Assembly (NCBI GenBank): GCA_965206315.1
Contig: OZ242210.1
Location: 2,343,560-2,407,559 of the forward strand
Direction: 5' to 3'
From: Dehalococcoidia bacterium
Lineage (GTDB): Bacteria; Chloroflexota; Dehalococcoidia; Lucifugimonadales; Australimonadaceae
Length of the DNA: 64,000 nt
The number at the start of each line of letters is the position of its first letter. The first letter of the stretch is position 1. Shown piece by piece: positions 5,718 to 63,753 of this stretch. The notes beneath the pieces were generated by a model. It had not been told where the DNA came from. It worked only from the letters and a program-made list of their open reading frames with translations, and did not search any database. Both the position numbers and the translations under genes were made by a program.

Positions 5718-6740
5718 ATGGCAGATGCGGAACTGCAGATCGACCTCCCGGATGCGCCGGCAGATTCGCTGACCACGGAAGACCTGCTGGACATCTACGC
5801 CACCATGCTCCTCGTCCGCACGCTGGACGAGCGGGTGTGGGCGATGAACCGGCAGGGCAAGGCGGCCATCGTCGCATCGAGCCAGGGCCACGAGGCCGCG
5901 CAGCTCGCCTCCGTCTGGGCGCTCCGGAAGAACGCGCCGGACTTCTTCTGCTTCACCTACTACCGCGATCTTGCAGTAACGACAGCTCTCGGCCTAACGG
6001 CGGAGGAGTCGTTGCGGGGCTTCCTCGCGCGGGATGGCGAACCGCTCTCCGGCGCCCGCCAGTTCCCCCAGCACGGGGCTGCCCCGGAGCTGAAGTTCAT
6101 CAACCACTCCAACGTCATCGGCACGCACGTTCCCCAGGCCGTCGGTTGGGCGCTCGGGGCGAAGATGCGCGGCGAGGACACCGTCGTGGCGTGCTTCTTC
6201 GGCGACGGCACGACGAGCCAGGGCGAGGTGCACGAGGCGATGAACTTCGCCTCCATCCACAAACTGCCCATCGTCTTCTTCGTGGAGAACAACAAGTACG
6301 CCATCTCCGTTCCCATGTCGCGCCAGATGGCCATCGAGCGGTACGCGCTGCGGGCCGAGGGGTACGCGATGCCGGGCACGACGGTCGACGGCACCGACGT
6401 GCGCGCCTCGTACCAGGCGGCTTCGACCGCAGTGCAACTCGCGGCGATGGGCGGTGGGCCGAGCATCGTCGAGTTCGACGTGGAGCGTTATCTGCCGCAC
6501 ACGAGCGACGACGACGACACCGTCTACCGGGACCCCGCCGAGATAGAAGAGGCCCGGAAGCGCGACCCGCTGGAGAAACTCCACTCGCTGCTCTCCGGCA
6601 CGGGCTTGCTCTCCGAGGAGCGCGACGCAGCGATGAAGAAGCGGGCGCGCGATGAGGTGAATGTGGCGACCGACGCCGCGGAGGCCGCGCCGTTCCCCAG
6701 CGACGAGGACGTGTTCCGCCACGTGACGAGCGAGACGTAG
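5718..6740 (+). CDS. 2-oxoacid dehydrogenase E1 component, alpha subunit (TPP-dependent)
   Basis: TPP-binding GDGTTSQGEVHEAMNFA...FFVENNKYAIS. Heads an E1alpha/E1beta/E2 operon with 2-nt gaps between genes. Confidence 0.9.
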   Translation: MADAELQIDLPDAPADSLTTEDLLDIYATMLLVRTLDERVWAMNRQGKAAIVASSQGHEAAQLASVWALRKNAPDFFCFTYYRDLAVTTALGLTAEESLRGFLARDGEPLSGARQFPQHGAAPELKFINHSNVIGTHVPQAVGWALGAKMRGEDTVVACFFGDGTTSQGEVHEAMNFASIHKLPIVFFVENNKYAISVPMSRQMAIERYALRAEGYAMPGTTVDGTDVRASYQAASTAVQLAAMGGGPSIVEFDVERYLPHTSDDDDTVYRDPAEIEEARKRDPLEKLHSLLSGTGLLSEERDAAMKKRARDEVNVATDAAEAAPFPSDEDVFRHVTSET

Positions 6741-6742
6741 CG

Positions 6743-7726
6743 ATGGCAGTGGTCACGGTTATAGAGGCGATACGCGACGCGATGCGCGAGGAGATGGAGC
6801 GCGACGGGTCCGTGTTCGTGATGGGCGAGGACGTGGGCCGCAGGGGCGGCGTCTTCCTGGCCACGAAGGACTTCCTGGACGAGTTCGGTGAAGGGCGCGT
6901 CGTCGACACGCCGCTCGCCGAGGCGTCGATAGCCGGCATCGCGGTCGGAGCGGCGTTGTCCGGCCTGCGCCCCATCGCGGAGGTGCAGTTCGCGGACTTC
7001 ATCTGGCCGACGGTGAACCAGATGATCGGCGAGGCCGCGCGCATCCGCTACGGCTCCAACGGGAAGCTGAACGTGCCGATGGTGCTGCGCTCTCCCTACG
7101 GCGGACACGTGCGCGGCGGGCTCTACCACTCCCAGAGCGTCGAGTCGTACTTCGCGCACACGCCCGGGCTGAAGGTGGTCGCCCCTGCGACGCCGTACGA
7201 CGCGAAGGGCCTGCTGAAGGCCGCGATCCGCGACGACGACCCCGTCATCGTGCTCGAGCACAAGCGCACGTACCGCTCGGTGCGCGGCGAGACGCCGGAC
7301 GAGGACTACGTCGTGCCCATCGGCTCCGCGGAGGTGAAGCGCGAGGGGACCGACGCCTCGATCATCACGTACGGCCTCACGCTCCACTACTCGCTGCAGG
7401 CGGCTGCCGAACTGGAGAACGAGGGCGTGAGCGTCGAGGTCGTCGACCTCCGCACGCTGCGTCCGCTCGACACGGAGACAGTGCTGGAGTCGGTGCGCAA
7501 GACGAGCAAGGCGCTCGTGGTGCACGAGGACAACGCCGCCGTGTCGGTCGGGTCGGAGGTGAGCGCGCTCATCGCTGAACACGCATTCGAGTACCTGGAC
7601 GCGCCGGTGATGCGCTGCGCGGGGCCGGAGATACCGGCGATGCCGTTCGCGCCCACGTTGGAGGCGGCGTACATGCCCACGGCGGAGAAGATAGCGGCCA
7701 AACTCAGAGAACTGGTGGCGTACTGA
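6743..7726 (+). CDS. 2-oxoacid dehydrogenase E1 component, beta subunit
   Basis: Transketolase-like pyrimidine-binding and C-terminal domains (VFVMGEDVG..GGVF, EVQFADFIWP, SPYGGHVRGGLYHSQS). Confidence 0.9.
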   Translation: MAVVTVIEAIRDAMREEMERDGSVFVMGEDVGRRGGVFLATKDFLDEFGEGRVVDTPLAEASIAGIAVGAALSGLRPIAEVQFADFIWPTVNQMIGEAARIRYGSNGKLNVPMVLRSPYGGHVRGGLYHSQSVESYFAHTPGLKVVAPATPYDAKGLLKAAIRDDDPVIVLEHKRTYRSVRGETPDEDYVVPIGSAEVKREGTDASIITYGLTLHYSLQAAAELENEGVSVEVVDLRTLRPLDTETVLESVRKTSKALVVHEDNAAVSVGSEVSALIAEHAFEYLDAPVMRCAGPEIPAMPFAPTLEAAYMPTAEKIAAKLRELVAY

Positions 7727-7728
7727 AC

Positions 7729-9792
7729 ATGATCAGGATCATCGAACTGCCGCAGGTGGGCGAATCGGTGACGGAGGGCGTCATCGGCAAGTGGCTCGTG
7801 GAGCCGGGGCAGCACGTCGAGAGATACGACCCCCTCGTCGAGGTCGTCACCGACAAGGTGAGCATGGAGGCGCCGTCGCCGTACACGGGCGTGTTCGTCC
7901 GTGCACTCGCCGAAGAGGGCGAGACCGTGCCGATGGGCCAGCCGATCTGCGAGATGGAGGTGGAGGACGAGGAATCCCCCGTCGTTCCTGCGGAGGCAGG
8001 AACCTCGCAGCCCGAGTCCGCAGCATCTTCTGCCCCCTCCCTCTTTGAGATCGAGGCCGAGGGCGAACCCGCAGCGGACGATGCGGAAGACGCCCCCGCT
8101 GAGACGGAAGACGCCGGACGTGTCGGCGGCGCATGGGCGATGCCAGCCGCGCAAGGCGCGGACGCGCCCAGCGCCGGCGTACCAGAGGCCGGGCCGGGCG
8201 AGGAAGCCGAGCATCACACGTTCGAGTTCATGGACAGCGTCCGCAGCGTCGGCCCGACCGGCTCAGGGGAACGCGGAGAGGGACGCCCCGACGCGCTGCA
8301 GGAGCAGGCGCTCGCCGAACGAGAGCACGAGACCGTGGCGCCGAGCGTCGCGGAGCCGGACCGCAGTCACGTCATATCGCCGCTGGTCGCGAGGCTGTCG
8401 GCGCAGTACGGCATAGACCTGTCGGCGGTCCGGGGCACCGGCACCGGAGGCCGGATCACGAGCAAGGACCTGCTCGAAGCAGTCAGCCGCATGACTTCCG
8501 GGCCACAGGAGGCCGAGGCAGAGGAGGCCACCGGAGAAGAACCGGAAGCGGCTGCGGAGGGTGCGCCTGAGGAGGAGGCGGAGGTTGAGCCGGCAAGCCC
8601 CGTCATCCCCGCACAGGCGGGGATCTTAGGTGGCCAAGCCACACGTGCGGGGGCAGCGCACGAGGAGCCAGCGGGGCCGGTGGAGGGCTTGGAAGCGCCT
8701 GCGGAAGCTGAAACCGAGGCCGTAACGGAGCAGCCCGCGTTTGGGGAAACGACAGAAGACGTCGAGGAGGAGACAGCCGAGCAGCCTCTGTTCGAGGAGG
8801 ACATCGAGCAAGCGTTGGACGCTGCTGAGGAAGAGGCGGCGTCTGAGGAAGCGGAGGAAGAGCAAGCGGAGGACGCGGCGCAGCCTGCAGTCGAGGACGA
8901 GTCGGCAAGTCCCGTCATTCCCGCACAGGCGGGAATCCAGGGTGACCGTGAGGTCACACGTGCGGGGGCAGCGCACGAAGAGGGATTGGGGTTTGTGCAG
9001 GACTCGGAGGCGGGCGTTACTTCAGGGGTTGCACAGGAAGCCGAAGAGGAACCCGCGGAGGAGGAGCCAGCGGTAGCCGCCGCCGCGGCAGCAGACACCT
9101 CCGTGATGCCCCTGACGCCTGTCCGCCGCATCATCGCCGAGCACATGGCCCGCTCCTCCCGCGAGATACCCGCCGCGTGGTCGATGGTGGAGGTGGACGT
9201 TACCCGGCTCGTGCGGACGCGGGACGCGCTCAAGGCCGCGTTCGAGACCCAGCATGGCATACCGCTGACCTACCTGCCGTTCGCTGCAGCTGCGGTCGCC
9301 GCAGCCCTGCGGGAGCACCCCCGCCTTAACGCGCGCTGGGACGACGGCCACATCACCCTCAATAACCGTGTCAACCTCGCGGTCGCGGTTGCGACCGAGG
9401 CGGGACTGATGGTGCCCGTCCTGCGCGACGCCGACACGCTCACCATCGCGGCCATCGCCGCCGAACTGCGCCGCCTGTCCGACGGCGCGCGGGCGGGGAC
9501 GCTCGGCATCGAGGACGTGCAGGGCGGCACCTTCACGCTCAACAACACCGGGGCGCTCGGCTCCGTGGTCTCCGTGCCCATCATCAACCACCCGCAGGCC
9601 GCGATCATGACGACGGAGGCCATCGTGAAGCGTCCGGTGGTCGTCGAGGGCGACGCCATCGCCGTGCGCTCGATGATGAACCTCTGCATCACCTTCGACC
9701 ACCGCGTCTGCGACGGCGCGGAGGCTGCCGCGTTCCTCAGCGCGGTCAAGGCCCGCCTCGAAGTCATCGACGAGAGCATCGGCCTCGGGTAG
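7729..9792 (+). CDS. dihydrolipoamide acyltransferase (E2) with greatly expanded acidic linkers
   Basis: Contains a lipoyl domain (VVTDKVSMEAPS), an E3-binding domain (ISPLVARLSAQYGIDLSAVRGTGTGGRITSKDL) and a catalytic domain (TFDHRVCDGAEAAAFL). At 687 aa it is long for the family. The linkers contain three repeat modules. Confidence 0.9.
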   Translation: MIRIIELPQVGESVTEGVIGKWLVEPGQHVERYDPLVEVVTDKVSMEAPSPYTGVFVRALAEEGETVPMGQPICEMEVEDEESPVVPAEAGTSQPESAASSAPSLFEIEAEGEPAADDAEDAPAETEDAGRVGGAWAMPAAQGADAPSAGVPEAGPGEEAEHHTFEFMDSVRSVGPTGSGERGEGRPDALQEQALAEREHETVAPSVAEPDRSHVISPLVARLSAQYGIDLSAVRGTGTGGRITSKDLLEAVSRMTSGPQEAEAEEATGEEPEAAAEGAPEEEAEVEPASPVIPAQAGILGGQATRAGAAHEEPAGPVEGLEAPAEAETEAVTEQPAFGETTEDVEEETAEQPLFEEDIEQALDAAEEEAASEEAEEEQAEDAAQPAVEDESASPVIPAQAGIQGDREVTRAGAAHEEGLGFVQDSEAGVTSGVAQEAEEEPAEEEPAVAAAAAADTSVMPLTPVRRIIAEHMARSSREIPAAWSMVEVDVTRLVRTRDALKAAFETQHGIPLTYLPFAAAAVAAALREHPRLNARWDDGHITLNNRVNLAVAVATEAGLMVPVLRDADTLTIAAIAAELRRLSDGARAGTLGIEDVQGGTFTLNNTGALGSVVSVPIINHPQAAIMTTEAIVKRPVVVEGDAIAVRSMMNLCITFDHRVCDGAEAAAFLSAVKARLEVIDESIGLG
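7981..8003 (+). repeat. repeat module B (GTCGTTCCTGCG-RAG-GCAGGAAC hairpin), intragenic and in frame
   Basis: 'gtcgttcctgcggaggcaggaac' is translated as VVPAEAGT inside E2. An identical 23-mer lies at 61969-61991, and intergenic copies lie at 11309-11331 and elsewhere. Confidence 0.8.
8602..8665 (+). repeat. repeat module C (GTCATTCCCGC-N4-GCGGGAATCCAGGGTG...GCGGGGGCAGCGCACG), intragenic and in frame
   Basis: Translated as VIPAQAGILGGQATRAGAAHEE. Intergenic homologues lie at 13947-13997, 59922-59973 and 63884-63940. Confidence 0.8.
8914..8980 (+). repeat. repeat module C, second intragenic in-frame copy
   Basis: Translated as VIPAQAGIQGDREVTRAGAAHEE. Same nucleotide family as 8602-8665. Confidence 0.8.
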
Positions 9793-9805
9793 AGCCTTCT
9801 TCATT

Positions 9806-10090
9806 GTCATGTTGAGCGGAGCCGGAGGCGGAGTCGAAACATCTCTCGGGGAGCGTTCGCGAGTGTGGTGCGTCTCCCGAGAGATTCCTCGGCTCCGCTC
9901 GGAATGACAGTATTGGCTCCCCTCTCCTGAGGGAGAGGGCAACGCGCTTCAGCGCGTGGGTGAGGGCCCTGCGTGTGGCGTGTGGGGCAGTCCGTCGTTC
10001 CTGCGCTTCAGCGCGCGCGGAGAGCAGGAACCTCACCTCGGGGTGTCTTGTCCCTTCCCCCTTGATGGGGGAAGGTTAGGATGGGGGTGA
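9806..10090. repeat. mosaic repeat cluster: A (9806-9850), inverted A (9874-9908), D (9919-9967), long B (9994-10031), E (10050-10090)
   Basis: All five modules recur elsewhere in the window. The cluster fills the E2/purH spacer. Confidence 0.8.
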
Positions 10091-10122
10091 GGTCACTTGA
10101 TTCTCGATAACGAGGAGTAACG

Positions 10123-11298: not shown

Positions 11299-11308
11299 GT
11301 GCTCCCCC

Positions 11309-11530
11309 GTCGTTCCTGCGAAGGCAGGAACCCCGCCTGGTGTAGGGGCGTCCCTCGTGGGCGCCCGGCTTGACCCACCTCTCCCTTGGGGAGGGTCGAC
11401 GCGCTTGCGCGGCGGGTGAGGGTGACCGGTGCGCTGGATGGACACCTGGTGTAGGGGCGTCCCTTGTTTGCGCCCTGCCTGACCCCTCTCCGCCAGGAGA
11501 GGCCCGCGCCTTCAGCGCGTGGGTGAGGGC
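11309..11530. repeat. mosaic repeat cluster: B (11309-11331), F (11341-11366), D (11376-11425), F (11450-11475), D (11483-11530)
   Basis: The F-D unit is duplicated in tandem. All modules are shared with other spacers. Confidence 0.8.
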
Positions 11531-11582
11531 GGATCCCTGTGGGGTATGCTGTGGCCGACGCCTCCGGAGGAGCAAGACCCCC

Positions 11583-12434
11583 ATGGAACTGACCCTGCTC
11601 GGCACAGGCACGCCCCAACCCAGCCCGCGGCGCGCGGGGCCCAGCAACCACCTGCGCATCGGTGGACAGTCCGTCCTCGTCGACACGGGCACCGGCTGCG
11701 TGCGCCGCATGGTCGAGGTGGGGGAGGACACCACCGAACTCGACTACATCTTCCTCACCCACATGCACTCCGACCACACCATCGACCTCGCCCACGTGCT
11801 GCTCACCGGCTGGATCCGCTACCGGAAGCGACCGTTCACGGTCGTTGGTCCGGCGCGGACGCGGGACTTCGTCGAGCGGCTCGTCCACGCCTTCGAGGAG
11901 GACATCCGCATCCGCCGCCTCCACGACCGCGTGGGCGAGGACGTTATGAACGTGCGTGTCGTCGAGGTGGGCCACGGCGACCACGTCGAGGGCGACGGCT
12001 GGCGCGCCACGGCGCTGGAGGTCGAGCACGGCTACGTGAAGCCCGCGCTCGGGTTCGTCTTCGAGGAGGACGGCAGCAGCCTGGTCGTCTCGGGCGACAC
12101 GGCGGTGAGCGACGCCATCGTTGAGGCCGCCTCATCCGCCGACATGCTGCTGCACGAGCTGATGTACACGCAGCCGCACCGCGGCGGGCCCGCGCCCGAC
12201 GGACGCGACTACCACGAGGTCGACCGCGAGAACCTCACGGAGTTCGCGCGGCGCATCGCCAACTCGCACACGTGTCCGCACGGGCTCGCCGAGGTCGCCG
12301 CCAGATCGGAGGTCCCGCACGTCGTCGCAACTCACATGGGAGACGTCGACGAGCCGTGGTCGCGCGAGGTCATCAGCGCCAACTACGAGCGAACGCTGAC
12401 CTTCGGCGAAGATCTGATGCGGTTCACGGTGTAG
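11583..12434 (+). CDS. MBL-fold metallo-hydrolase (RNase Z/ElaC-like)
   Basis: ORF 11370..12434, trimmed to MELTLLGTGTP (M72) because upstream residues read through repeats. Carries the HxHxDH motif LTHMHSDH. Confidence 0.8.
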   Translation: MELTLLGTGTPQPSPRRAGPSNHLRIGGQSVLVDTGTGCVRRMVEVGEDTTELDYIFLTHMHSDHTIDLAHVLLTGWIRYRKRPFTVVGPARTRDFVERLVHAFEEDIRIRRLHDRVGEDVMNVRVVEVGHGDHVEGDGWRATALEVEHGYVKPALGFVFEEDGSSLVVSGDTAVSDAIVEAASSADMLLHELMYTQPHRGGPAPDGRDYHEVDRENLTEFARRIANSHTCPHGLAEVAARSEVPHVVATHMGDVDEPWSREVISANYERTLTFGEDLMRFTV

Positions 12435-13887: not shown

Positions 13888-13946
13888 CGGCCGCCGCTCC
13901 CGCCCCCAGCTTTCACTGGAATCACGATGCGTGTGTCCTCTGTCCC

Positions 13947-13997
13947 GTCATTCCCGCACCGGTGGGAATCCAGGGTGCGCGGGCAGCGCACGTGGGG
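13947..13997 (+). repeat. repeat module C (intergenic copy)
   Basis: 'gtcattcccgcaccggtgggaatccagggtgcgcgggcagcgcacgtgggg'. Confidence 0.8.
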
Positions 13998-14001
13998 TGT
14001 C

Positions 14002-14779: not shown

Positions 14780-14785
14780 TCGGGT

Positions 14786-14820
14786 CCCCTCTCCTGAGGG
14801 AGAGGGTTAGGGTGAGGGCC
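14786..14820. repeat. repeat module D (CCCCTCTCC-YGAG-GGAGAGGG...GGGTGAGGG)
   Basis: 'cccctctcctgagggagagggttagggtgagggcc'. Confidence 0.75.
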
Positions 14821-14885
14821 CTGTGGAGGTGGAGCGGGGGAGTATGTCGTCGGTATGCAAACCGAAGAGAGCATGGAGTAGAGCG

Positions 14886-16256: not shown

Positions 16257-17301
16257 ACGCCTCGTCGTTCCCGCGAAGGCGGGGAGGTGGATTCACATTC
16301 GAAGTGCAACACCTGCTCTCGTAGCACCTCGGCCGGGGTCTGCCACTCGAGGCACTTGCGCGGCGTATTGTTATACACCCTCAACAGCGCCGTGAACTCT
16401 CCCTCCGACAGTGAGGCCAGGTTCGTCTTGCGGGGTAAGAACCAGCGCATCCGCCCGATAGCGTTCTCCACGCCTCCCTTCTGCCACGGCGAATAGGTGT
16501 CGCAGAAGAACGTCTCGATGCCCCAGGCGTGGAGTTCGTAGTGGTGGGCGAACTCCGTGCCGTTGTCGAACGTGACCGTCTGGCGGAACTCCGGTGGCAG
16601 CGTCCCAGGACGGCGGCGATGGCTTTGGCGACCGGTGCTGCTGCCCTCGAAGGTCGCCGCACCGCAAGCAGCAGCCTCGAACGGCGCTCGTGCAGCATCA
16701 GCACCGTCTGCCCGGTCCTGCCGAACTGCATCCCATCCGCCTCCCAGTGCCCGAATGTCTGCCGGTCAGCAACTGCTGCAGGGCGTTCCGAGAGCGGCCG
16801 GCGGTGCAGAATGGTGCGGGCCGAACTGCTCCCCCCACGCTGGCGCCGACCGCGCCGCCACTTCCCCCGCCGCAACAGCTTGCGCCACGAATAGTCCTTC
16901 GTCCGCGCTATCTGCGCGTAGATGAACTGGTAGATGCTCTCATGGGAGGTGACGCTCTTGCCTCGCTCCTTCTTCAACCGCCCCGCCACTGCCTCCGGCG
17001 ACCAGCCCAGTTGCAAACCGAGCAGCACATCCCTGCGGAGCTCGTCTTCCCGGTCCAGCCGTGCGCCACACCAGCGTCGTGCACGGGCTTGCTCATGGGC
17101 ATAGGTCGCCCGGTAGCCGCCGTCCTTCGTGCCGTTGCGCTTCAACTCCCGAGCAATCGTCGGTGGCGGGCGATCCAGAGTTGCTGCGATTTGCCGGATC
17201 GAGCGCCCCTCGGCACGTAAGCGGGCAATCGCACAGCGTTCCTCAAATCCCAAGCTGCGTATAGCGGTTCCCCATGGCAACACCTTAGTCTGGTGTTGCA
17301 C
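16253..17301 (-). pseudogene. IS30-family DDE transposase, interrupted by a 1-nt frameshift near 16603-16606
   Basis: The N-terminal frame (ORF 16381..17301) carries an HTH, SHESIYQFIY and GHWEADGM. After ...AIAAVLG the homology continues in another frame as TLPPEFRQTVTFDNGTEFAHHYELHAWGIETFFCDTYSPWQKGGVENAIGRMRWFLPRKT... (ORF 16253..16471). The junction is a G run (ctgggacg). Confidence 0.75.
16264..16286. repeat. repeat module B/C variant
   Basis: 'gtcgttcccgcgaaggcggggag', lying between the recombinase stop and the IS30 end. Confidence 0.6.
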
Positions 17302-17314
17302 TTCGTTTGTTAAC
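16291..17314 (-). mobile_element. IS30-family insertion sequence (about 1.0 kb) with imperfect terminal inverted repeats
   Basis: IR 16291-16313 'attcacattcgaagtgcaacacc' versus the reverse complement of 17292-17314 'gttaacaaacgaagtgcaacacc' (19 of 23 match). The repeats bracket the transposase. Confidence 0.75.
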
Positions 17315-17332
17315 TTAGGGGACCTCGCCTGA

Positions 17333-17405
17333 TGTAGGGGCGTCCCTTGTGGGCGCCCTGCTTGGTCCCTTCCCCCTTGATGGGGGAAGGTTAGGATGGG
17401 GGTGA
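17333..17405. repeat. repeat modules F (17333-17358) and E (17365-17405)
   Basis: 'tgtaggggcgtcccttgtgggcgccc' and 'gtcccttcccccttgatgggggaaggttaggatgggggtga'. The same F-E pair occurs at 59999-60071. Confidence 0.8.
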
Positions 17406-17447
17406 CTGGCCACGTGGGGTGTTCTCACGGGCGTATACTGGTTGTGT

Positions 17448-17828
17448 CAAGAGGGCCGGGCGGCCGCTCCGGCGTCGCCGGGGAGGAAAGTCCGGACTCC
17501 GCCGGGCAGGGTGCTGGGTAACGCCCAGGCGCAGCGATGCGACGGAAAGTGCCACAGAGACCACAGCGCCGATGGCCCCGCGTTCTGCGGGGGACAGGCA
17601 AGCGTGAAACGGTGCGGTAAGAGCGCACCAGGTCCCGGTGCAAGCCGGGATGCTGGCAAACCCCACCCGGAGCAAGGCCAAATAGAGGGACGTCTCCGCC
17701 CGGCGGAGCGCAGCGCCCGGCTGCTGTCCCCGGGTAGGCCGCACGATCCCTTCCGGCAACGGAGGGACCAGATAGATGGCCGCCGCCTCGCACGCGAGGT
17801 ACAGAATCCGGCTTACAGGCCCTCTTGG
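17448..17828 (+). ncRNA. rnpB: RNase P RNA, bacterial type A
   Basis: Contains GGAGGAAAGTCCGGACTCC (P4 5' strand) and ACAGAATCCGGCTTAC (P4 3' strand). Also contains GTGAAACGGTGCGGTAAGAGCGCACC and GCAAACCCCACCCGGAGCAAGGCCAAATAG. P1 pairs 'aagagggcc' with 'ggccctctt'. Ends are accurate to within a few nt. Confidence 0.85.
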
Positions 17829-17870
17829 CGCTCGTCTGCCTTGTTGGGTGGAGAGCGAAAAGCACCTGCT

Positions 17871-18046
17871 CCTCTCGCCCTCTGAGAGAGGGTGCCGCGC
17901 GAGCGGCGCGGTGAGGGACTGTCATTCCGAGCGGAGCCGTCGGCGATAGCCGAGGGCGGAGTCCCGCGCTTTAGCGCGCAGAATCCTCTCGGGGAGAACC
18001 CCTCGCCCTCTGGGAGAGGGTGCCACGCCAGCGGCGGGTGAGGGTT
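17871..18046. repeat. mosaic repeat cluster D (17871-17918), long A (17921-17994), D (17999-18046)
   Basis: Fills the spacer between rnpB and the 3' end of the first Rieske gene. Confidence 0.8.
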
Positions 18047-18048
18047 GT

Positions 18049-19359
18049 CTAGCGCGAGTGGGGGTAGGCGAGCTCGAGGTTGGGCGGCTCGTCCACCTTG
18101 GCGTAGAGCCAGTCGTGCATGTGCTCGTACCAGGACTCGCCCTTCGGGAGCGTGCCGATGGCGGAGCGCACGCGATACCACTCCGGGTTCTCGACGCACG
18201 GCGGCGTCACGTTGTCGTAGTGGAGGGCCTTCGCCGCGTTCAGGAGACGGCGCCGCACCTGGATGATCATGCCGTCCGAGCGTCCGAGGTGCTCGATGCT
18301 GCGGTTCTGGACGGGCCCCATGCTCTCGGTGACGGCCTGGTCCTGCAGGAAGACGGTCGCGATGCCGGTGAACGTCTCGGTGCGCTGGAGGTTGCGGTCT
18401 ATCTCGTAGTCGTTCTTGCGGTTGGCGCGCGGGCGGAAGCGTCCGAGCGGGCCCGCGGTATCGGGCAGCAGCTCGCCCGCAGGGTGCGTCGCGTTGCCGA
18501 GCACGCCGAACCGCCTGCTGTCGGCGACGTTCTTCGTGGGATGCCAGGAGACCGTCCAGACCATCGTGTGGTGGTCGTCCATCGGCACCCAGATGTGGCC
18601 GGGCACGGTGCCGTCGGCGGCGGCAGGGAAGAAGGTGAAGATGGGAAAGAGGAACTGGGTGATGCGCCAGTAGGTGGTCTCCTCGTTTTCCTCGCGGTTC
18701 GCGCCGTAGACGACGCCGTACTTCGTGGGAACGACCTCCAGCGTGGGGTGCTTGTCGTTGTGCCAGACGCCGATGTTGCCCTCAGCGTCCGGGTCCAGCC
18801 GTCCGTGGAGGAAGAAGAGGTGGCTGGTGTCGATGTCGCCCTCGAGGCCCTGCATCCAGTTGCAGGCGCGCTGCGCGAGGGAGAAGTTGCGCTGCTCCTC
18901 CGGCATGGCGGTCCACTCGAAGTCGGGCAGTCCGGGCGGTTCGCCCTCGCCGAGGTACGCCCACACGACGCCGCCGTGGACCGCGCCGCGGTACGCCCAC
19001 GCGCGGATCTTGTCCTTGAAGCTGCTGTCGCCGGGCTCGTTGGGCTGGTCGACGCACTGGCCGGTGACGTCGTACTTCCAGCCGTGGTAGACGCACCGGA
19101 GGCCTCCCTGCTCGTTGCGGCCGTAGAAGAGCGAGGCGCCGCGGTGCGGGCACGTCTCGGAGAAGACGCCCACATCGCCCTTGGAGTCGCGGAAGACGAT
19201 GAGGTCTTCGCCGAGCAGGCGGAAGCGCTGGGGATCGCAGTCGGGGCCGCCGAGCTCCTCGACAGGCATGATGGGGAGCCAGTAGCGGCGCATGAGTTCG
19301 CCCATCGGCGTTCCCTTGCCCACCTGCGTCAGCATCTCGTTGTCTGCCGTGCTCAGCAT
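18049..19359 (-). CDS. Rieske (2Fe-2S) non-heme-iron oxygenase, alpha subunit (paralogue 1)
   Basis: Rieske motif [25 protein letters not shown] and mononuclear Fe motif [13 protein letters not shown]. Confidence 0.85.
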
Positions 19360-24577: not shown

Positions 24578-24601
24578 GGCGCGCCTCCGCTATCACGCAC
24601 G

Positions 24602-24628
24602 CTGGATTCCCGCCTTCGCGGGAATGAC
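24602..24628 (-). repeat. repeat module C core (inverted orientation)
   Basis: 'ctggattcccgccttcgcgggaatgac'. Confidence 0.7.
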
Positions 24629-24688
24629 GAAGAGAGTCAGGAACGACAAGGGGCGGGCTCCGTCTGGAGCCCGCCCCTGAAGCGGTCG

Positions 24689-26794: not shown

Positions 26795-28069
26795 ATGTTG
26801 AGCCACGCTGACAACGAGCTCATCACCCGCACGGGCAGGGGCACGCTGATGGGCGCGCTCTTCCGCCGCTACTGGCTGCCCGCGCTGATCTCCGACGAAC
26901 TCGAGGCGGACGGGGCACCGGTGCGCTTCCGGCTGCTGAACGAGGACCTCGTCGCGTTCCGGGACACGAGCGGCGAGGTGGGCATCCTTTCCGAGTTCTG
27001 CCCGCACCGCGGCGTCTCGCTTGCGCTCGGTCGCAACGAGTACGACGGCCTGCGCTGCCTCTACCACGGCTGGAAGTTCGACGTCGCCGGTCGATGCGTG
27101 GACATGCCGACGGAGCCGGTGGAGAGCGGTTTCCGCAACAAAGTGAGGGCAGGGGCGTACGCGGTGCGCGAGCACGCCGGTGCGGTGTGGGTGTACATGG
27201 GCGCGCCTGAGAGCGAGCCGCCGTTCCCCGTCTACTACTGGACGACGGTGCCGGACTCGAACCGCATCATGGCGAAGTGGATACAGGACGCGAACTGGCT
27301 GCAGAGCCTGGAGGGCGGCATCGACACGGTGCACGCCTCGTTCCTGCACAACACTGCCGAGGGACCGATGGTTGCGCCCGGCGCGGCGAGCGGGAACAAC
27401 CTGATGTTCAACGACACGAGGCCGAAGCTGGAGATAGAAGAGACCTCCTACGGCTTCCGCTACGCCGCGATACGAAGAGGACCGGAGGAGGACAAGCGCT
27501 ACGTGCGGATCACGCCCCACATCATGCCGGCGTCGTCGTATCCGCCGTTCTCCAGGGAGGACAACCGCATCTGGAACATGTGGGTCCCCCGCGACGACGG
27601 CACGTGCTGGGCGTGGGATGTGTGCTTCAACGAGACGAAACCGATGTCCGACGAGTTGAAGGCGCAGCTGAAGGAGTACCGGGGCTACAACGCCTTCGAT
27701 CCCAGGACATTCGTGAAGTACGCGGGGCCGCAAAACATGTGGATGCAGGACCGCGAGCTGATGAAGAAGGAGAGCTGGTCCGGCATCCGCGGGCTGTTCG
27801 TGCAGGACAACGCGGTGCAGGAGAGCATGGGCCCCATCGTCGACCGCACCATCGAGCACCTGGGCACCACGGACGCGGCCATCATCAGGGCGCGCAAGCT
27901 GTACATCAAGGCCGCCATCGCGCTCGCGGAGGAGGGCGTCGAGCCGCCCGGCGTGTGGGAGCAGGGCGACTACGAGCTGATCCGCTCCGACGCGTACGTG
28001 CAGCCGGTGGACGTTTCGTGGAAGGCCGAGCGTCCGCTGGAAGAGCGGTTCGCCGTCGGCGTGAGTTGA
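26795..28069 (+). CDS. Rieske non-heme-iron oxygenase alpha subunit (paralogue 2)
   Basis: CPHRGVSLALGRNEYDGLRCLYHGW and EGGIDTVHASFLH. AAGGAGG RBS. Confidence 0.85.
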   Translation: MLSHADNELITRTGRGTLMGALFRRYWLPALISDELEADGAPVRFRLLNEDLVAFRDTSGEVGILSEFCPHRGVSLALGRNEYDGLRCLYHGWKFDVAGRCVDMPTEPVESGFRNKVRAGAYAVREHAGAVWVYMGAPESEPPFPVYYWTTVPDSNRIMAKWIQDANWLQSLEGGIDTVHASFLHNTAEGPMVAPGAASGNNLMFNDTRPKLEIEETSYGFRYAAIRRGPEEDKRYVRITPHIMPASSYPPFSREDNRIWNMWVPRDDGTCWAWDVCFNETKPMSDELKAQLKEYRGYNAFDPRTFVKYAGPQNMWMQDRELMKKESWSGIRGLFVQDNAVQESMGPIVDRTIEHLGTTDAAIIRARKLYIKAAIALAEEGVEPPGVWEQGDYELIRSDAYVQPVDVSWKAERPLEERFAVGVS

Positions 28070-28096
28070 TCTGTCTCCGGGCGCGAGGAGCAACGA

Positions 28097-29113
28097 TTGA
28101 CCGAGACGGCAGCCAACGTCGTCCTTGACGTGCAGGAACTGCAGACGCACCTCTTCACCAAGTGGGGGGTGACGCGCGCCGTCGACGGGGTGAGCTTCCA
28201 GATACGCGAGGGCGAGACGCTCGGGCTCGTGGGCGAGTCCGGCTCCGGTAAGAGCATGACCGCGCTGTCGCTGCTGCGCCTGCTGCCGGAGGCCGCGCGC
28301 ATCGTGGGCGGGCGCATCCTGCTCGACGGCGACGACATCGTGCGCATGCGGATGCCGGACGTGCGCCAGATGCGCGGACGCAAGATATCGATGATCCTGC
28401 AGGACCCGCAGACGGCGCTGAACCCGGTATTCACTATCGGGAACCAGCTCACGGAGTCGATCGCGGCGCGCGGCGGACGGAACGGCGGACGCAGGAGCAG
28501 GCAGTCCGTCAGGGACCGGGCGATGGAGGTGCTGCGCATGATGCGCGTGGCCGCGCCGGAGCGCCGCCTCTCGGACTTTCCGCACCAGATGAGCGGCGGC
28601 ATGAAGCAGCGCGTGGTCGGCGGTATCGCCATCGAGAGCCAGCCACGGCTGCTCATCGCGGACGAGCCGACGACGGCGCTGGACGTGACGATACAGGCGC
28701 AGTACCTCAACCTGCTGAAGGAGATACAGCGCGAGACGGGCGTCGCCATCCTGTTCATCACGCACGACCTGGGCGTCGTGGCGCGGATGTGCGACAGGGT
28801 CGCGGTGATGTACGCGGGGCGCATCGTGGAGCAGGGCGGCATCCACGAGATATTCGACAATCCGTCGCACCCGTACACGCAGGCGTTGCTCGGCTCCATC
28901 CCGAAGATGGAGGAGCGCGTCGACCGGCTCACCGTGATAGAGGGGCAGCCGCCCGCGCTCTTCGCGCTGCCGCAGGGATGCCGCTTCGCGGTGCGCTGTC
29001 CCCACGTCCACGACCGGTGCGAGGAGGCGTATCCGGCGGAGTTCACAGGTTCTGACGGACATACCACCGCCTGCTGGCTGTTGGAGGAGAAGTGGAAGCC
29101 GACGTCCTCGTAA
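28097..29113 (+). CDS. peptide-type ABC transporter ATP-binding protein (DppD/OppD-like)
   Basis: Walker A GESGSGKS, signature MSGGMKQR, Walker B LLIADEPT, and the C-terminal oligopeptide-type motif HPYTQALL...CRFAVRCP. Confidence 0.9.
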   Translation: MTETAANVVLDVQELQTHLFTKWGVTRAVDGVSFQIREGETLGLVGESGSGKSMTALSLLRLLPEAARIVGGRILLDGDDIVRMRMPDVRQMRGRKISMILQDPQTALNPVFTIGNQLTESIAARGGRNGGRRSRQSVRDRAMEVLRMMRVAAPERRLSDFPHQMSGGMKQRVVGGIAIESQPRLLIADEPTTALDVTIQAQYLNLLKEIQRETGVAILFITHDLGVVARMCDRVAVMYAGRIVEQGGIHEIFDNPSHPYTQALLGSIPKMEERVDRLTVIEGQPPALFALPQGCRFAVRCPHVHDRCEEAYPAEFTGSDGHTTACWLLEEKWKPTSS

Positions 29114-30063
29114 GGGCCGAGAACCTCGAGAAGCATTTCCCCGTGACCGAGGGGCTGGTGCTGATGAAGACGGTGGGCTGGGTGCGCGCCGTCGACGGGA
29201 TCAGCTTCGAGGTGCGACGCGGTCAGACGCTCGCGCTCGTGGGCGAGTCGGGGTGCGGCAAGACGACAACGGCCAAGCTCGTGCTGCGCCTCGAACGCCC
29301 GACGGGCGGCGCCATCTCGATGGAAGGGCAGGACATCCATGCGCTCGGCGGGCAGGACCTGCGGCAGTTCCGCATGCAGGTGCAGGCGGTCTTCCAGGAC
29401 CCGTGGAGCTCGCTCAGCCCGCGGATGCGGGTGCGCGACATCATCGCGGAGCCGCTCGTGGTCAATAGGCACGTGGGCGCGCGTGAGGCGCGCGAGCGCG
29501 TGCTGGAGCTGCTGAACGACGTGGGGCTGCGTCCCGAGCAGGCAGACCTCTTCCCCCACGAGTTCAGCGGGGGGCAGCGGCAGCGCATCGCGATGGCGAG
29601 CGCGCTCAGCGTTGAGCCGTCGCTGATCGTGCTCGACGAGCCGGTGTCGGCGCTCGACGTGTCGGTTCAGGCGCAGATTATGAACCTGCTGCGCGACCTG
29701 CAGGTGCAGCACAACGTGAGCTACCTGATGGTGTCGCACAACCTTGCGACGGTCCGCTACCTCGCGCACGAAGTGGCGGTCATGTATCTCGGCGAGATCG
29801 TCGAGCGTGCGGAGACGGACGACCTGTACGAGCATCCGCTGCACCCGTACACGCAGGCGCTCTTCTCGGCGGCCCTCCCGGCGCACCCGGCTCTCCAGCG
29901 CGACGAGATGATCCTGCAGGGCGAGGTGCCGAGCCCGCTCAACCCGCCGTCCGGCTGCCGCTTCCACCCGCGCTGTCCGTTCGCGAAGGACGTCTGCGCG
30001 GAGGTCGCGCCGGAGTGGAAAGAGGAGACGCCCGGGCACTTCGTCGCGTGTCATCTGTACTGA
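29092..30063 (+). CDS. peptide-type ABC transporter ATP-binding protein (DppF/OppF-like)
   Basis: GESGCGKTT, FSGGQRQR, LIVLDEPVS and HPYTQALF...CRFHPRCP. The GTG start follows a GGAGGAG RBS and overlaps the upstream gene by 22 nt. Confidence 0.9.
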   Translation: MEADVLVRAENLEKHFPVTEGLVLMKTVGWVRAVDGISFEVRRGQTLALVGESGCGKTTTAKLVLRLERPTGGAISMEGQDIHALGGQDLRQFRMQVQAVFQDPWSSLSPRMRVRDIIAEPLVVNRHVGAREARERVLELLNDVGLRPEQADLFPHEFSGGQRQRIAMASALSVEPSLIVLDEPVSALDVSVQAQIMNLLRDLQVQHNVSYLMVSHNLATVRYLAHEVAVMYLGEIVERAETDDLYEHPLHPYTQALFSAALPAHPALQRDEMILQGEVPSPLNPPSGCRFHPRCPFAKDVCAEVAPEWKEETPGHFVACHLY

Positions 30064-30065
30064 CA

Positions 30066-30106
30066 TCAACATGGATGGACAGGATGGACAGGATGGACAG
30101 AATAGG
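30066..30106 (-). repeat. repeat module G (inverted; three tandem GGATGGACA units)
   Basis: 'tcaacatggatggacaggatggacaggatggacagaatagg'. Confidence 0.75.
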
Positions 30107-30144
30107 GGAAGGTGAGGCAAGGTTCCGGTCATGGGAGGTGCGCC

Positions 30145-31455
30145 ATGCTGACGAGGGAAGAGAACGAACTGCTCTGCCGCACGGGACCGAACGATCCCGC
30201 GGGTGAGCTGCTCCGGCGCTACTGGCAGCCCATCGCACTGGCCGAGGAGTTGCCGCCGGGCAGCGCGCCGATGCCGGTACGCGTCCTGAGCGAGGACCTG
30301 ACGCTCTTCCGCGACCAGTACGACCGCCTCGGGCTCGTGGCGCGGCACTGCGCCCACCGTGCGGCGGACCTGAGCTACGCGCGCATCGAGGACGGCGGTC
30401 TGCGCTGCCTGTACCACGGCTGGCTGTACGACATCCACGGCAACTGTCTGGAGCAGCCGGGCGAGCCCGAGGGCAGCACGTTCAAGGACAAGATTCAACT
30501 GCTCTCGTACCCGGTACAGGAGCGCGGGGGCGTCGTGTTCGCGTACCTGGGGCCGGGCGAGCCGCCGCTGCTGCCGGCGTACGAGTTCCTTGACATCGCG
30601 CCGGAGAACCGCGTCGTCACGAAGATCTACCACGAGTGCAACTACCAGCAAGGGAACGAGGGGAACATCGACCCGCAGCACCTCTCGTTCCTGCACTTCT
30701 TCATCCGCGAGGACGCCAGCGGCAGCCGCGTCGCGACGGGCAACGTGCAGGGCGGGGCCGCGACGTCGAACCGCATGATGGGCGATGATCCGTCGCCGAC
30801 GATCGAGGTCGAGGAGACGGACTACGGCATCCGCATCTACGCGGTGCGGGACACGGACGCGGGCGACGACTACGTGCGCATCACGAACTTCATCTACCCG
30901 AACCTGGCGTCGTTCCCGGCGTTCCCGGGCGTGTTCGGGGTCAACTGGCACGTGCCGATAGACGACACGCACCACTGGAAGTTCATGTTCATGGTGCGGT
31001 CGGAGGGGCCGCTGCCGAAGGACGCGCTGGGCCTGACGATGTTCGAAGGACTGAAAGAGGACTACACGAACGAGCGGAGCCTGCGCAACCGCTACCTGCA
31101 GGACCGTGAGGAGATGCGGACGCGCAGCTTCCTCGGCATGGGGCCGAGTTTCGCGGTCCATGACATGTGGGCGACGGAGGGTGAGGGCGCGATACAGGAC
31201 CGGACGACGGAGCACCTCGGCTACACGGACAAGGCGGTTGCCCTCTCGCGGCGTCTGCTGCTCAAGGCGACGCGACAGGTGCAGGACGGCGCGGAGGCCC
31301 CGCACGTGGTCCGCGAGGCGTCGGCCAACGTCTTCAACCACCTTGGCGCGTGGCAGGAGGTCATCCCGAAGTCGGAGGAGTGGTCGTCCGTGTGGAAGCG
31401 GAATGCCGAGGCGCTGGCGGCGCGGATGGGCTCGAACGGGCACAACGGTGCGTAG
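30145..31455 (+). CDS. Rieske non-heme-iron oxygenase alpha subunit (paralogue 3)
   Basis: Start at MLTREENELLCRTGP (M12 of the ORF). CAHRAADLSYARIEDGGLRCLYHGW and EGNIDPQHLSFLH. Confidence 0.85.
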   Translation: MLTREENELLCRTGPNDPAGELLRRYWQPIALAEELPPGSAPMPVRVLSEDLTLFRDQYDRLGLVARHCAHRAADLSYARIEDGGLRCLYHGWLYDIHGNCLEQPGEPEGSTFKDKIQLLSYPVQERGGVVFAYLGPGEPPLLPAYEFLDIAPENRVVTKIYHECNYQQGNEGNIDPQHLSFLHFFIREDASGSRVATGNVQGGAATSNRMMGDDPSPTIEVEETDYGIRIYAVRDTDAGDDYVRITNFIYPNLASFPAFPGVFGVNWHVPIDDTHHWKFMFMVRSEGPLPKDALGLTMFEGLKEDYTNERSLRNRYLQDREEMRTRSFLGMGPSFAVHDMWATEGEGAIQDRTTEHLGYTDKAVALSRRLLLKATRQVQDGAEAPHVVREASANVFNHLGAWQEVIPKSEEWSSVWKRNAEALAARMGSNGHNGA

Positions 31456-31504
31456 GATTTTGGGTGAGGTTGGGTAGAGGGGACAGCACGGAGGAGCTGT
31501 TGTC

Positions 31505-32743
31505 ATGCTGACGCCCGAGCAGAACGACCTGCTGCACAAGGTGGGGCCCGGCACGCCTATGGGGCGTCTGATGCGCCGCTACTGGCATCCGGTCGCCGCC
31601 GTCGGAGAGTTGGACGACAACCCGGTCAAGGCGATACGCCTGATGGGCGAGGACCTCGTGCTGTTCAAGGACGTGTCGGGCGACTACGGGCTGCTGGAGC
31701 GTCACTGTCCTCACCGCAGGGCCGACCTGTCGTACGGCTGGGTGGAGGAGGACGGCGGTCTGCGATGCAGCTACCACGGATGGCTGTTCGATACGACGGG
31801 CCAGTGCATCGGGCAGCCGTTCGAGCAGATCGCGCATCCGGAGGCGAACTTCAAGGAAAAGGTGCGGGCGACGGCGTACCACGTGCAGCCGAAGGCGGGG
31901 CTACTGTGGGCGTACATCGGCGAAGGTCCCGTGCCGGAACTGTGGGACTGGGATCGCTACCACGACCGTGGGTACAAGCAGGTCGTCTTCTCGGAGATCC
32001 CGTGCAACTGGCTGCAGTGCCAGGAGAACTCGATAGACCCGGTGCACTTCGAGTGGCTCCACTCGAACCAGTCGCTGCGCCGCGAAGGGAGCAAGGGGTA
32101 CGCGCCGACCCACACGCGCATCGCTTTCGAGGAGTTCGAGTTCGGCATCCGCTATCTGCGCATCCGGACGGACACGGACGAGGAGAACGAGCTGTGGAAG
32201 GTAGGGCGCGTCTGCCTGTGGCCGAACGCGCTCTACGCGGCAGGCCACTTCGAGTGGCGGGTGCCGGTAGACGACGAGCACACGATGAGCGTCGGGTGGT
32301 TCCTCGATCCGATACCCGGTGAGCAGCCGTTCGAGCAGGAGCGCATCCCGTACTGGCACTCGCCCATCGTGGACGAGGAGACGGGTCGCTGGATATCGAG
32401 CCACATCATGAACCAGGACTTCATCGCGTGGGTGGGGCAGGGCAACGTGTCCGACCGGTGGAACGAGCACCTGGGTGAGAGCGATCGCGGCGTGATCATG
32501 CTGCGGAAGCAGTTCATGGACGATCTGGCCGTCATCGAGGACGGTGGCGATCCGAAGGGAGTGCTGCGCGACGCGTCGCGCAACGACAAGATGCCGCTGC
32601 CGCGCATCCGCAACGAGGTCGGGCAGTTCGCGCCGACAACGTACCCGCCGGTGTTTCCGTTCCAGGTGGACCAGCCGAAGGAGATCGAGGCGGAGTACCA
32701 CGCGTACTGGGCGGAGTATGGGGGCGCGCTGGCGCCGTCGTAG
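31505..32743 (+). CDS. Rieske non-heme-iron oxygenase alpha subunit (paralogue 4)
   Basis: CPHRRADLSYGWVEEDGGLRCSYHGW and ENSIDPVHFEWLH. Confidence 0.85.
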   Translation: MLTPEQNDLLHKVGPGTPMGRLMRRYWHPVAAVGELDDNPVKAIRLMGEDLVLFKDVSGDYGLLERHCPHRRADLSYGWVEEDGGLRCSYHGWLFDTTGQCIGQPFEQIAHPEANFKEKVRATAYHVQPKAGLLWAYIGEGPVPELWDWDRYHDRGYKQVVFSEIPCNWLQCQENSIDPVHFEWLHSNQSLRREGSKGYAPTHTRIAFEEFEFGIRYLRIRTDTDEENELWKVGRVCLWPNALYAAGHFEWRVPVDDEHTMSVGWFLDPIPGEQPFEQERIPYWHSPIVDEETGRWISSHIMNQDFIAWVGQGNVSDRWNEHLGESDRGVIMLRKQFMDDLAVIEDGGDPKGVLRDASRNDKMPLPRIRNEVGQFAPTTYPPVFPFQVDQPKEIEAEYHAYWAEYGGALAPS

Positions 32744-32782
32744 GGCGTCCGCTGCCGATGTCACGATGAGGAGCCGCTTTCG

Positions 32783-34018: not shown

Positions 34019-34116
34019 CGACAGACCGCGCAAACTGTGGAGCCATCGGCTGTACGGTTTGACAAGCATGGAATTACCGTTAGACTGTGCGTCACAGTTA
34101 CTGTGGAGATGTATCG

Positions 34117-34772: not shown

Positions 34773-34853
34773 CCCCCACCAGCGCGCTGAAGAGAGCGAC
34801 CCTCTCCCCGAGGGAGAGGTGGGCTGCGAGATTCCTGCCTGCGCGGGAACGAC
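34773..34853 (-). repeat. repeat modules D and B in inverted orientation
   Basis: 'cccccaccagcgcgctgaagagagcgaccctctccccgagggagagg' followed by 'attcctgcctgcgcgggaacgac'. Confidence 0.7.
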
Positions 34854-34922
34854 GGGAAGGGGCGGTTTGACCTGTCTGCGCTGAGGGCGTAGGTTGCCGT
34901 CAGCACACCCGAGAGAGGCAGG

Positions 34923-58423: not shown

Positions 58424-58557
58424 GCTGCGCGCCTTTGCTCCTAACTCGTTTGCCGCATCATAGCCGTCCCTCTTGGCCGCGCACATACCGGTACGTGTGC
58501 GCTACAATCCCCCCCAGATCGACCGACCGCCCGATAGAGCCGAAGGAGGTTCGCCTC

Positions 58558-60148: not shown

Positions 60149-60160
60149 CGCGAACGCCCC

Positions 60161-63706: not shown

Positions 63707-63753
63707 GCCGCGCCTCCTTCGGACCGGATGCGCCGGAGTATACGCGAGGGATT

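Follow-up and report, generated by a model that had tools for sequence, protein, structure and literature searches.

How a short DNA repeat that lives between genes comes to be read as protein in a metabolic enzyme is the question raised by one locus of a Dehalococcoidia bacterium (Chloroflexota). The stretch analysed, referred to as the window, covers 64,000 nucleotides (contig OZ242210.1, positions 2,343,560–2,407,559, forward strand) and includes a gene for the dihydrolipoamide acyltransferase (E2) of a 2-oxoacid dehydrogenase, whose inter-domain linkers contain palindromic modules that recur between genes elsewhere in the window. The E2 modules are very probably composite stem-loops, based on a repetitive extragenic palindrome (REP) of the CGTC-1 type, that were captured from the intergenic pool and are read in frame in a permissive linker. 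Capture is supported by nucleotide matches to intergenic copies beyond chance, by the wide distribution of this REP type, by syntenic presence and absence among orthologues, including an 84-nt gap, and by the short, REP-free linkers of E2 proteins outside the clade. These are also the grounds on which an earlier proposal, that part of the linker is captured repeat DNA with the reading frame unbroken, is upheld.

Palindromic modules in the E2 linkers

The E2 gene (7729–9792, + strand) is an open reading frame encoding 687 aa, as given in the preliminary description of the locus, and is the third gene of an E1alpha-E1beta-E2 operon, preceded by E1alpha (5718–6740; E1_dh) and E1beta (6743–7726; Transket_pyr/Transketolase_C). 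Three domains are encoded on the same strand: a lipoyl domain (residues 5–76, 7741–7956; Pfam Biotin_lipoyl PF00364, E = 3.1e-18), an E3-binding, or peripheral subunit-binding, domain (residues 216–249, 8374–8475; E3_binding PF02817, E = 1.5e-10), and an acyltransferase catalytic domain that matches solved E2 cores (residues 456–680, 9094–9768; 2-oxoacid_dh PF00198, E = 3.9e-77). All three matches exceed the Pfam curated cut-offs, and the translation contains the lipoyl-lysine motif TDKV and the catalytic motif FDHRVCDG (DHRxxDG type). With its three domains, catalytic motif, and E1alpha and E1beta neighbours, the protein has every feature expected of a 2-oxoacid dehydrogenase E2. Linker 1 spans residues 77–215 (~139 aa) and linker 2 residues 250–455. 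The preliminary description was right that linker 2 is expanded, as comparison with the ~20-aa linkers of distant E2s confirms, but its length is ~206 residues rather than the ~250 first estimated.

The window was scanned with the pattern GTCATTCCCGC-N4-GCGGGAATC, which defines the repeat termed module C, allowing up to three mismatches. Seven matches were found against 0.02 expected, a number reached in none of 100 shuffles. Five are intergenic (13947, 59922, and 63884 on the + strand; 24605 and 34830 on the − strand), and two lie inside linker 2 (8602–8625, +, two mismatches; 8914–8937, +, no mismatch). The starts of the two E2 copies are 312 nt apart, that is 104 codons, which matches the spacing of about 100 residues reported earlier; both lie on the sense strand and share one frame, where they read as ASPVIPAQAGILGGQATRAGAAHEE and ASPVIPAQAGIQGDREVTRAGAAHEE. 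When the E2 gene was compared by BLAST with the rest of the window, only repeat-derived segments matched (89–100% identity over 27–38 nt): 8909–8949 matches 13942, 59920, 63883, and 24629 at 89–97% identity, and 7975–8013 matches 11303, 61966, and 34856 at 92–100%. Both searches bear out the kinship first noted between the E2 copies and the elements at 13947, 59922, and 63884; the list was nevertheless incomplete, lacking the minus-strand copies at 24605 and 34830 and a GTTCCTGC subtype present at 7981, 11309, and 61969.

Copy 1 (8593–8676, +) is 84 nt long, equal to 28 codons (ASPVIPAQ...HEEPAG), with a G-rich tail extending to ~8697. Its CGTC tag (8601–8604) is followed by a stem (8605–8612/8617–8624), an extra small hairpin (~8632–8644), and a further hairpin (8648–8653/8661–8666), and the predicted fold (−45.6 kcal/mol) combines three hairpins with a closing stem, GCCCCGU/GCGGGGC. 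Copy 2 (8905–8982, +; possible tail to ~9012), which is the exact pattern match, has its CGTC at 8913–8916, a stem at 8917–8924/8929–8936, and the hairpins GTGACC-GTGA-GGTCAC and CGTGCG-N7-CGCACG, predicted to fold as three consecutive hairpins (−35.8 kcal/mol, z = −3.9). It is identical to the intergenic copies at 34/36 (13942), 32/33 (63883), and 34/38 (59920) positions. Both E2 copies carry, between hairpin 1 and the GTGCG..GCGCAC hairpin, an extra middle hairpin (GGTGGCCAAGCCAC in copy 1, GTGACCGTGAGGTCAC in copy 2) that occurs in none of the intergenic copies examined. As this hairpin measures 15 or 18 nt, the reading frame is kept.

Linker 1 contains a third E2 hairpin (7978–8013, +), a CGTC-1 REP of the GTTCCTGC subtype read as 12 residues, with the stem GTTCCTGC/GCAGGAAC (predicted hairpin −16.4 kcal/mol). 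It is identical at 27/27 positions to 61966–61992, at 29/30 to 11303–11332, and at 33/36 to 34856–34821, and is found at the same place in most of the orthologues (loci L121–L131, compared below). A putative decayed companion module of the CCCCTCTCC..GGGAGAGG..GAGGGTG type follows at ~8035–8075 (+), read as APSLFEIEAEGEP; its identification comes from orthology, with no significant BLAST match in its own right. Better kept versions in L122, L124, and L123 (SDPLSLEGEAEG, APLSFEGEGWGEGEP) match the intergenic modules at 9916–9968, 14783–14835, and 63815–63870. Since the companion follows the linker-1 REP in the order of the intergenic arrays, a short array may have been captured as a block.

All module copies in E2 map between Pfam domains. 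The sequence between copies 1 and 2, originally called acidic filler, answers to that name in part, but contains an orthologue-conserved block, QPLFEEDIEEALDAAEEE. Also between the two copies, at residues ~353–378 (8785–8860), many orthologues keep a block, QPLFEEDIEQALDAAEEE, for which alone in the linker a helix is predicted (pLDDT ~68); its conservation and predicted helix suggest that this filler is not wholly unconstrained. Between the lipoyl and E3-binding domains, a conserved motif of ~30 aa, FEFMDSVRSVGPTGSGERGEGRPDALQEQA (residues ~164–197, 8218–8320), is invariant even in short-linker relatives of 63% identity, and has no counterpart in Pfam or among solved E2 structures.

The CGTC-1 family in and around the window

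The first hairpin of module C is recognizable from its sequence as a CGTC-1 REP, the type to which Neisseria dRS3 and Rickettsia RPE-6 belong. Such REPs are defined by a CGTC tag, an 8-bp stem starting AT, a 4-nt loop, and a CCA-like tail, and have been equated with dRS3 and with RPE-6 of R. conorii (Di Nocera, De Gregorio and Rocco 2013, BMC Genomics 14:522, PMC3733652). CGTC stands directly 5' of the stem in the two E2 copies, as it does in nearly all of 56 distinct copies drawn from the window and the 11 related loci; TGTC or CCTC replaces it in a few, variants that the same study also describes. The stem-loop is ATTCCCGC-ACAG-GCGGGAAT in copy 2 and ATCCCCGC-ACAG-GCGGGGAT in copy 1, each with an 8-bp stem and a 4-nt loop, while the stem of the GTTCCTGC subtype begins G-C, not A-T. 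Copy 2 and most intergenic copies have the tail CCAG, copy 1 has CTTA, and the GTTCCTGC subtype has CTCG. Over the 56 copies, 96.2% of stem cells are paired, changes on both sides occur in four of the eight pairs, and the covariation score was reached by none of 500 shuffles. The head-to-head dimers typical of CGTC-1 were not found: copies stand singly, linked to other stem-loops within mosaic arrays; a singleton exception has also been noted for Neisseria and Wolbachia (PMC3733652). Paired +/− copies 50–110 nt apart do occur in other genomes matched by the pattern.

Counting one genome per species, exact copies are present in at least 120 stretches from Proteobacteria (including Neisseria), Dehalococcoidia, Chloroflexia, Nitrospirae, Planctomycetes, CPR bacteria, and others. 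This spread across phyla identifies the repeat pool as the source and the E2 gene as the recipient. CGTC repeats had been reported in five phyla, Chloroflexi not among them, and have no known dedicated transposase (PMC3733652). A search of the window with Rfam at gathering thresholds returned nothing for the repeats and only RNase P. The latter is a bacterial RNase P RNA of class A (17448–17831, +; 269 bits) located in a 1.8-kb repeat-rich intergenic region (16257–18048).

A looser stem pattern gave 12 hairpin matches in the 64 kb, comprising eight intergenic, three in frame (two in the E2 linkers and one in a major facilitator (MFS) gene), and one (2722–2739) near the start of an uncertain open reading frame. 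E2 copy 1 fails this pattern, so that E2 contains three hairpins in total, and 60 CGTC copies lie outside E2 in the window and the 11 loci. The canonical intergenic module reads CGTC-ATTCCCGC-ACCG-GCGGGAAT-CCAG(G/A)GTGCGCGGGCAGCGCAC, followed by a G-rich tail. Of the copies recognized by both pattern match and BLAST, that at 13942–13998 (+) has the canonical two-hairpin form and runs into 14 G; that at 59920–59975 (+), supported also by its predicted fold, heads a mosaic array of other modules; and that at 63883–63950 (+) lies inside such an array. The two on the minus strand are at 24580–24629 and at 34821–34858; the stem of the latter is mixed, GTTCCCGC/GCAGGAAT, and a CCCTCTCC-type module comes after it. 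A REP of the GTTCCTGC subtype (11303–11336, +; looser pattern, BLAST) is situated just past the stop codon of an AICARFT-like gene. In the arrays, families D7, D9, D11, D17, D18, and D19 co-occur in recurring order at 9800–10100, 17300–18040, 59900–60160, and 63380–64000. The G run at 13984–13997 could vary in length or be a sequencing error. Matches such as those at 11370–12434 and at L121 2699–3598 that had appeared intragenic were dropped against the called genes, being N-termini overextended over repeats by a caller based on GC content at third codon positions (GC3).

Outside E2, CGTC hairpins in the window and L121–L131 number 54 on the E2 strand and 6 on the opposite strand; in the window alone the counts are 9 versus 2 including the three in E2, and 6 versus 2 without them. 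For most of the window GC skew is positive, turning negative after ~48 kb, and the strand bias might stem from replication-strand or transcription-linked insertion.

E2 is not the only gene in the window to contain such sequences. An MFS transporter gene (61344–62867, −) has a GTTCCTGC-type CGTC REP at 61966–61996, read on the opposite strand as 10 residues that, judged by position, probably belong to the central cytoplasmic loop. In an HGGG-type esterase/alpha/beta-hydrolase (Abhydrolase_3; open reading frame 62672–63706, −), a 34-residue in-frame insert (63401–63502) consists of two or three intergenic modules, of the TTGTCATTTCGAGCGGAGC...GAAATCTCTCGGG family together with CCCTCTCC-type hairpins. 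It follows RVYVPA and immediately precedes the HGGGW oxyanion motif, falling between a strand and HGGG in an alignment to Est8 (4ypv), which shows a gap there. Repetition of other kinds is also present in the window. Five paralogous Rieske-type oxygenase-like genes are located at 26850–34020 and 58435–59868, two of them a tandem pair of 90–95% identity (31505–32743 and 32783–34018), and a 6/12/18-nt periodic repeat of CCNACN units at 56755–57279 encodes a Thr/Pro-rich stretch, probably the PT-linker of a secreted or surface protein.

Modules among E2 orthologues

The 11 orthologous loci and the window together provide 12 E2 genes for comparison. The gene order E1alpha-E1beta-E2-AICARFT-like is kept in all 11 loci, and the nearest homologs are E2 proteins of uncultured Chloroflexota, 420 to 934 aa long. 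All 12 genes are intact, every indel is a multiple of three, and the gaps in their alignment fall at the modules, the outcome anticipated in the preliminary description. At L122, the window flanks GAGGCGGAGGTTGAGCCG and GTGGAGGxCTTGGAAGCGCCTGCGGAA are identical, with a clean 84-nt (28-codon) gap where copy 1 stands in the window. At L126 the hairpins are absent from the copy 1 site, but the tail AGPVEGSEA is kept and resembles the G-rich tail of intergenic modules; L122 keeps its G-rich tail as PVEDLEA.

Copy 1 is present in nine genes (the window, L121, L123, L124, L125, and L128–L131). The private stem ATCCCCGC/GCGGGGAT is found in eight of these nine, with a decayed ATTTCCGC in L128, and the loop ACAG in seven, L125 and L130 differing. 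Being common to nine orthologues with a private stem, copy 1 is taken to be old and vertically inherited. A module of the ATTCCCGC type occurs in E2 in 9 of the 11 loci, L122 and L126 having only the GTTCCTGC subtype, and HLSLEGRGRAESAGEGEP, read in frame in the E2 genes of L122, L124, and L126, belongs to the family found intergenically in the window at 9916–9968. Modules in the E2 genes of taxa that have no intergenic repeats, which had been named beforehand as an observation that would undo capture, were not encountered: all 11 loci also have intergenic CGTC copies in their flanks.

Copy 2 appears to have a different history. Within the ~230 kb sampled, the three-hairpin form is restricted to E2 genes (twice in the window, and in L121 and L129). 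Copies 1 and 2 have in common an identical 23-nt stretch, ACACGTGCGGGGGCAGCGCACGA, and the 5' flank GGCAAG(C/T)CCC. Copy 2 differs from copy 1 in its canonical first stem, ATTCCCGC/GCGGGAAT, and in its tail, GGGATTGGGG, which is like that of an intergenic variant at L125 12112, whereas the second copy of L124 combines an intermediate stem, ATTCCCGC/GCGGGGAT, with a tail like that of copy 1. Compared with control linker segments, the upstream 30 nt of the two copies are modestly more alike (11 of 267 controls reach the score). From these resemblances copy 2 is probably an intragenic duplicate later altered by gene conversion, the alternative being independent capture. The earlier picture of two captured modules would then hold for copy 1, as an old insertion, but not for copy 2.

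A wider census of 121 related E2 proteins identified 112 REP-type motifs, between 0 and 8 per protein, at varying positions in both linkers. All 112 are read as V-I/V-P-A-x-A-G; the four other frames that lack stop codons contain none. The motifs fall into at least three sequence types and so do not descend from one event copied many times. In distant E2s (P0056, P0059, P0062, P0097, P0103) linker 2 is ~20 aa and contains no motif; across the clade it has grown from ~20 aa to 120–375 aa. In some clades long linkers without a REP motif have expanded by tandem duplication of acidic units, so that linkers have grown in at least two ways, REP capture being one.

Repeats also adjoin the 3' ends of genes at these loci. 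In L123, L124, L125, and L126 a canonical module C lies ~20 nt past the E2 stop codon, where the window has a different module (9800–9860). The AICARFT-like gene of L124 (3213–4601; 462 aa versus 391 aa) and a CoA-transferase of L121 (1442–2695; 417 aa versus 393 aa) each have a C-terminal extension into REP modules (VIPAKAGIQRARQ..., RHSRESGNP...), suggesting that repeats also reshape protein C-termini.

Competing explanations and known systems

Two explanations deny that capture took place. Convergence by chance or low complexity in an Ala/Pro/Gly-rich linker could draw on the biased composition of that linker, but is refuted by the 24-nt exact match, the excess of pattern matches, and identities of 32/33 to 34/36 nt to intergenic copies, leaving it with practically no probability. 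The modules might otherwise be an artefact, either repeats misassembled into the gene or marks of a decaying pseudogene; repeats are a classic cause of assembly error, and this exact E2 protein has no record elsewhere. Independent assemblies from other samples nevertheless have these modules at matching places (L121 with the same three-hairpin copy 1; L124 with two module C copies 261 nt apart), the 12 intact genes differ by frame-preserving indels, and the domains are 88–94% identical at the nucleotide level with catalytic motifs kept, making an artefact highly improbable. What remains to be weighed is why the modules persist, and here the synonymous sites of copy 1 are informative. Among codons with a conserved amino acid, copy 1 has nine that are four-fold degenerate, and eight of these keep the same third base in all nine orthologues, compared with 33 of 126 for the folded domains (binomial P = 1.5e-4). 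At third positions the pairwise identity is 0.975 for the module and 0.68 for the domains, and nucleotide identity is 0.92 over the whole module and 0.60 in the flanking linker. Homogenization with the intergenic pool does not explain this conservation, since copy 1 has a private stem and loop and differs from the pool consensus. The linker-1 REP is identical over 33 nt (codons 84–94) in 8 of 11 orthologues, including four A/T-ending codons despite 92% G/C at the four-fold sites of the gene, and is replaced or decayed in the other three.

Retention as nucleic acid, with the peptide a by-product, would accommodate these data: the hairpin could slow translation between domains, stabilize or process the operon transcript, or bind a REP-recognizing protein, and the stems do remain paired across the family. 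Selection on the hairpin or sequence of copy 1 is accordingly possible. The evidence, however, comes from one module in nine related sequences. A T>C/A>G pair in the copy 1 stem was rejected as a sign of structural selection, as both changes (ATT>ATC and GGA>GGG) are synonymous third-position changes toward GC3, and the apparently compensatory pair may be codon amelioration. The all-or-none state of the linker-1 site, either identical or wholly replaced, suggests gene conversion better than selection, and the synonymous-site test on that REP over all orthologues, three of which carry replaced variants, was not significant. Several orthologues without the hairpins still have an intact gene, and no Rfam family matches. 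Retention as nucleic acid is for these reasons unlikely. Recruitment of the peptides for a role at the protein level is rather doubtful. The peptide PVIPAQAGIQGARAAHEEEAGPVEGLEA is conserved amid a hypervariable linker, only the Ala/Pro-rich frame is used, and inner-linker length is known to set the architecture of E2 complexes (PMC6270654); but copy number and position vary among close relatives, some of which have no copy, and a constraint on protein would leave synonymous sites free, which they are not.

Capture into a permissive linker remains the explanation favored here, with several observations weighing against it. The synonymous conservation of copy 1 is not predicted if the modules are purely neutral passengers. 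Compared with a MITE, which has terminal inverted repeats and a target-site duplication, copy 1 has a predicted closing stem, and its 84-nt indel relative to L122 no clear duplication, only CCG on each side. The G-rich tails kept in L122 and L126 make secondary loss of the hairpins likelier than a site never occupied, and it is doubtful that the L122 gap is a pristine empty site. An AlphaFold2 model of E2 from a 14-sequence alignment (mean pLDDT 44.5, the lipoyl domain also being low) cannot confirm that the linkers are disordered.

Capture could have proceeded as follows. REPs and companion stem-loops form mosaic arrays between genes in this Chloroflexota lineage, from which a module or short array would occasionally be copied into a coding region by transposition in trans, illegitimate recombination, or gene conversion. 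To survive, an insertion would need a length divisible by three (84 nt, with extra hairpins of 15 or 18 nt), a stop-free frame, and a peptide suited to its surroundings, and selection would remove all but those whose peptide suits a flexible, Ala/Pro-rich linker. The REP sense frame, P-V-I-P-A-x-A-G-I-Q, resembles natural linker sequence, which would make the linker a permissive sink for modules. Once captured, modules are inherited vertically, as copy 1 is, and comparison of copies and orthologues suggests further fates: duplication or conversion inside the gene (copy 2), substitution by other family variants, decay, or deletion of the hairpins. For the enzyme the modules are most likely neutral, or else alter the reach of the swinging arm. 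As the inner linker sets complex geometry, the expansions could change enzyme architecture. It is tempting to speculate further that the modules are kept at the nucleotide level because, inside the coding sequence, they work as hairpins or as sites for protein binding, and that capture and tandem duplication make swinging-arm length (~20 to 375 aa in this clade) a fast-evolving and possibly adaptive trait, but this is an improbable extension of the present findings.

The case illustrates, through syntenic presence and absence, extragenic palindromic repeats turned into protein sequence, and supports the published suggestion that REPs inside genes can be accommodated where the protein has flexible linkers or loops (PMC3733652). 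Chloroflexota thereby joins the hosts of CGTC-type REPs. One gene has been a recurrent sink, with 0–8 copies per orthologue and one frame tolerated, and so offers a natural experiment on the peptides that a disordered linker accepts. For annotation, the repeats account for E2 lengths of 600–930 aa, and the motifs VIPAxAGIQ, SRLRGND, and PLSLEGEG in this lineage can be read as repeat-derived.

The linkers of canonical E2 proteins, described by Perham and colleagues, are normally 25–30 aa, Ala/Pro-rich, extended, and flexible (PMC6270654). Those of the window E2 occupy the same position between lipoyl, subunit-binding, and catalytic domains, and the REP-coded peptide is likewise rich in Ala and Pro; they differ in their length of ~139 and ~206 residues, in being strongly acidic, and in their partly repeat-derived sequence. 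Palindromic repeats in frame within genes are already established. CGTC and GTAG REPs are known inside uvrA, recB, dnaE, and other genes (PMC3733652), MITE fusions are known (PMC10969869), and RPEs are found in frame in ordinary metabolic genes, apparently compatible with function (Ogata et al. 2000, summarized in PMC3733652 and PMC10969869). What sets the present case apart is the Chloroflexota host, the repeated build-up in the linkers of one gene, the strict use of a single frame, and the polymorphism among orthologues.

The closest likeness is to the CGTC-1 REPs and dRS3, which have the same tag, stem, loop, and tail, are mostly intergenic but sometimes occur as in-frame stretches wholly inside open reading frames, have no known dedicated transposase, and in Neisseria are clustered with other repeats in mosaic arrays like those of the window. 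In contrast to the published CGTC-1 elements (PMC3733652), the window REP is fused to further stem-loops in a module of ~84 nt, is a singleton rather than a head-to-head dimer, and occurs in several copies in one gene, with up to eight in orthologues. RPEs are similar in that an in-frame palindromic repeat leaves the domains of the host protein intact, as in the 687-aa E2. However, elements of the RPE-1 type measure ~100–150 bp and occur one at a time in many different genes of an intracellular alphaproteobacterium, whereas shorter modules pile up here in one permissive linker, in a free-living or host-associated Chloroflexota lineage. The intergenic arrays, finally, resemble the Neisseria intergenic mosaic elements (NIMEs) and the BIMEs of enterobacteria in that a REP/dRS3 hairpin is interleaved with short modules in recurring order (9800–10100, 16260–18050, 59900–60160, and 63380–64000). 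While NIMEs and BIMEs are described as extragenic, parts of the arrays in this lineage are read as protein.

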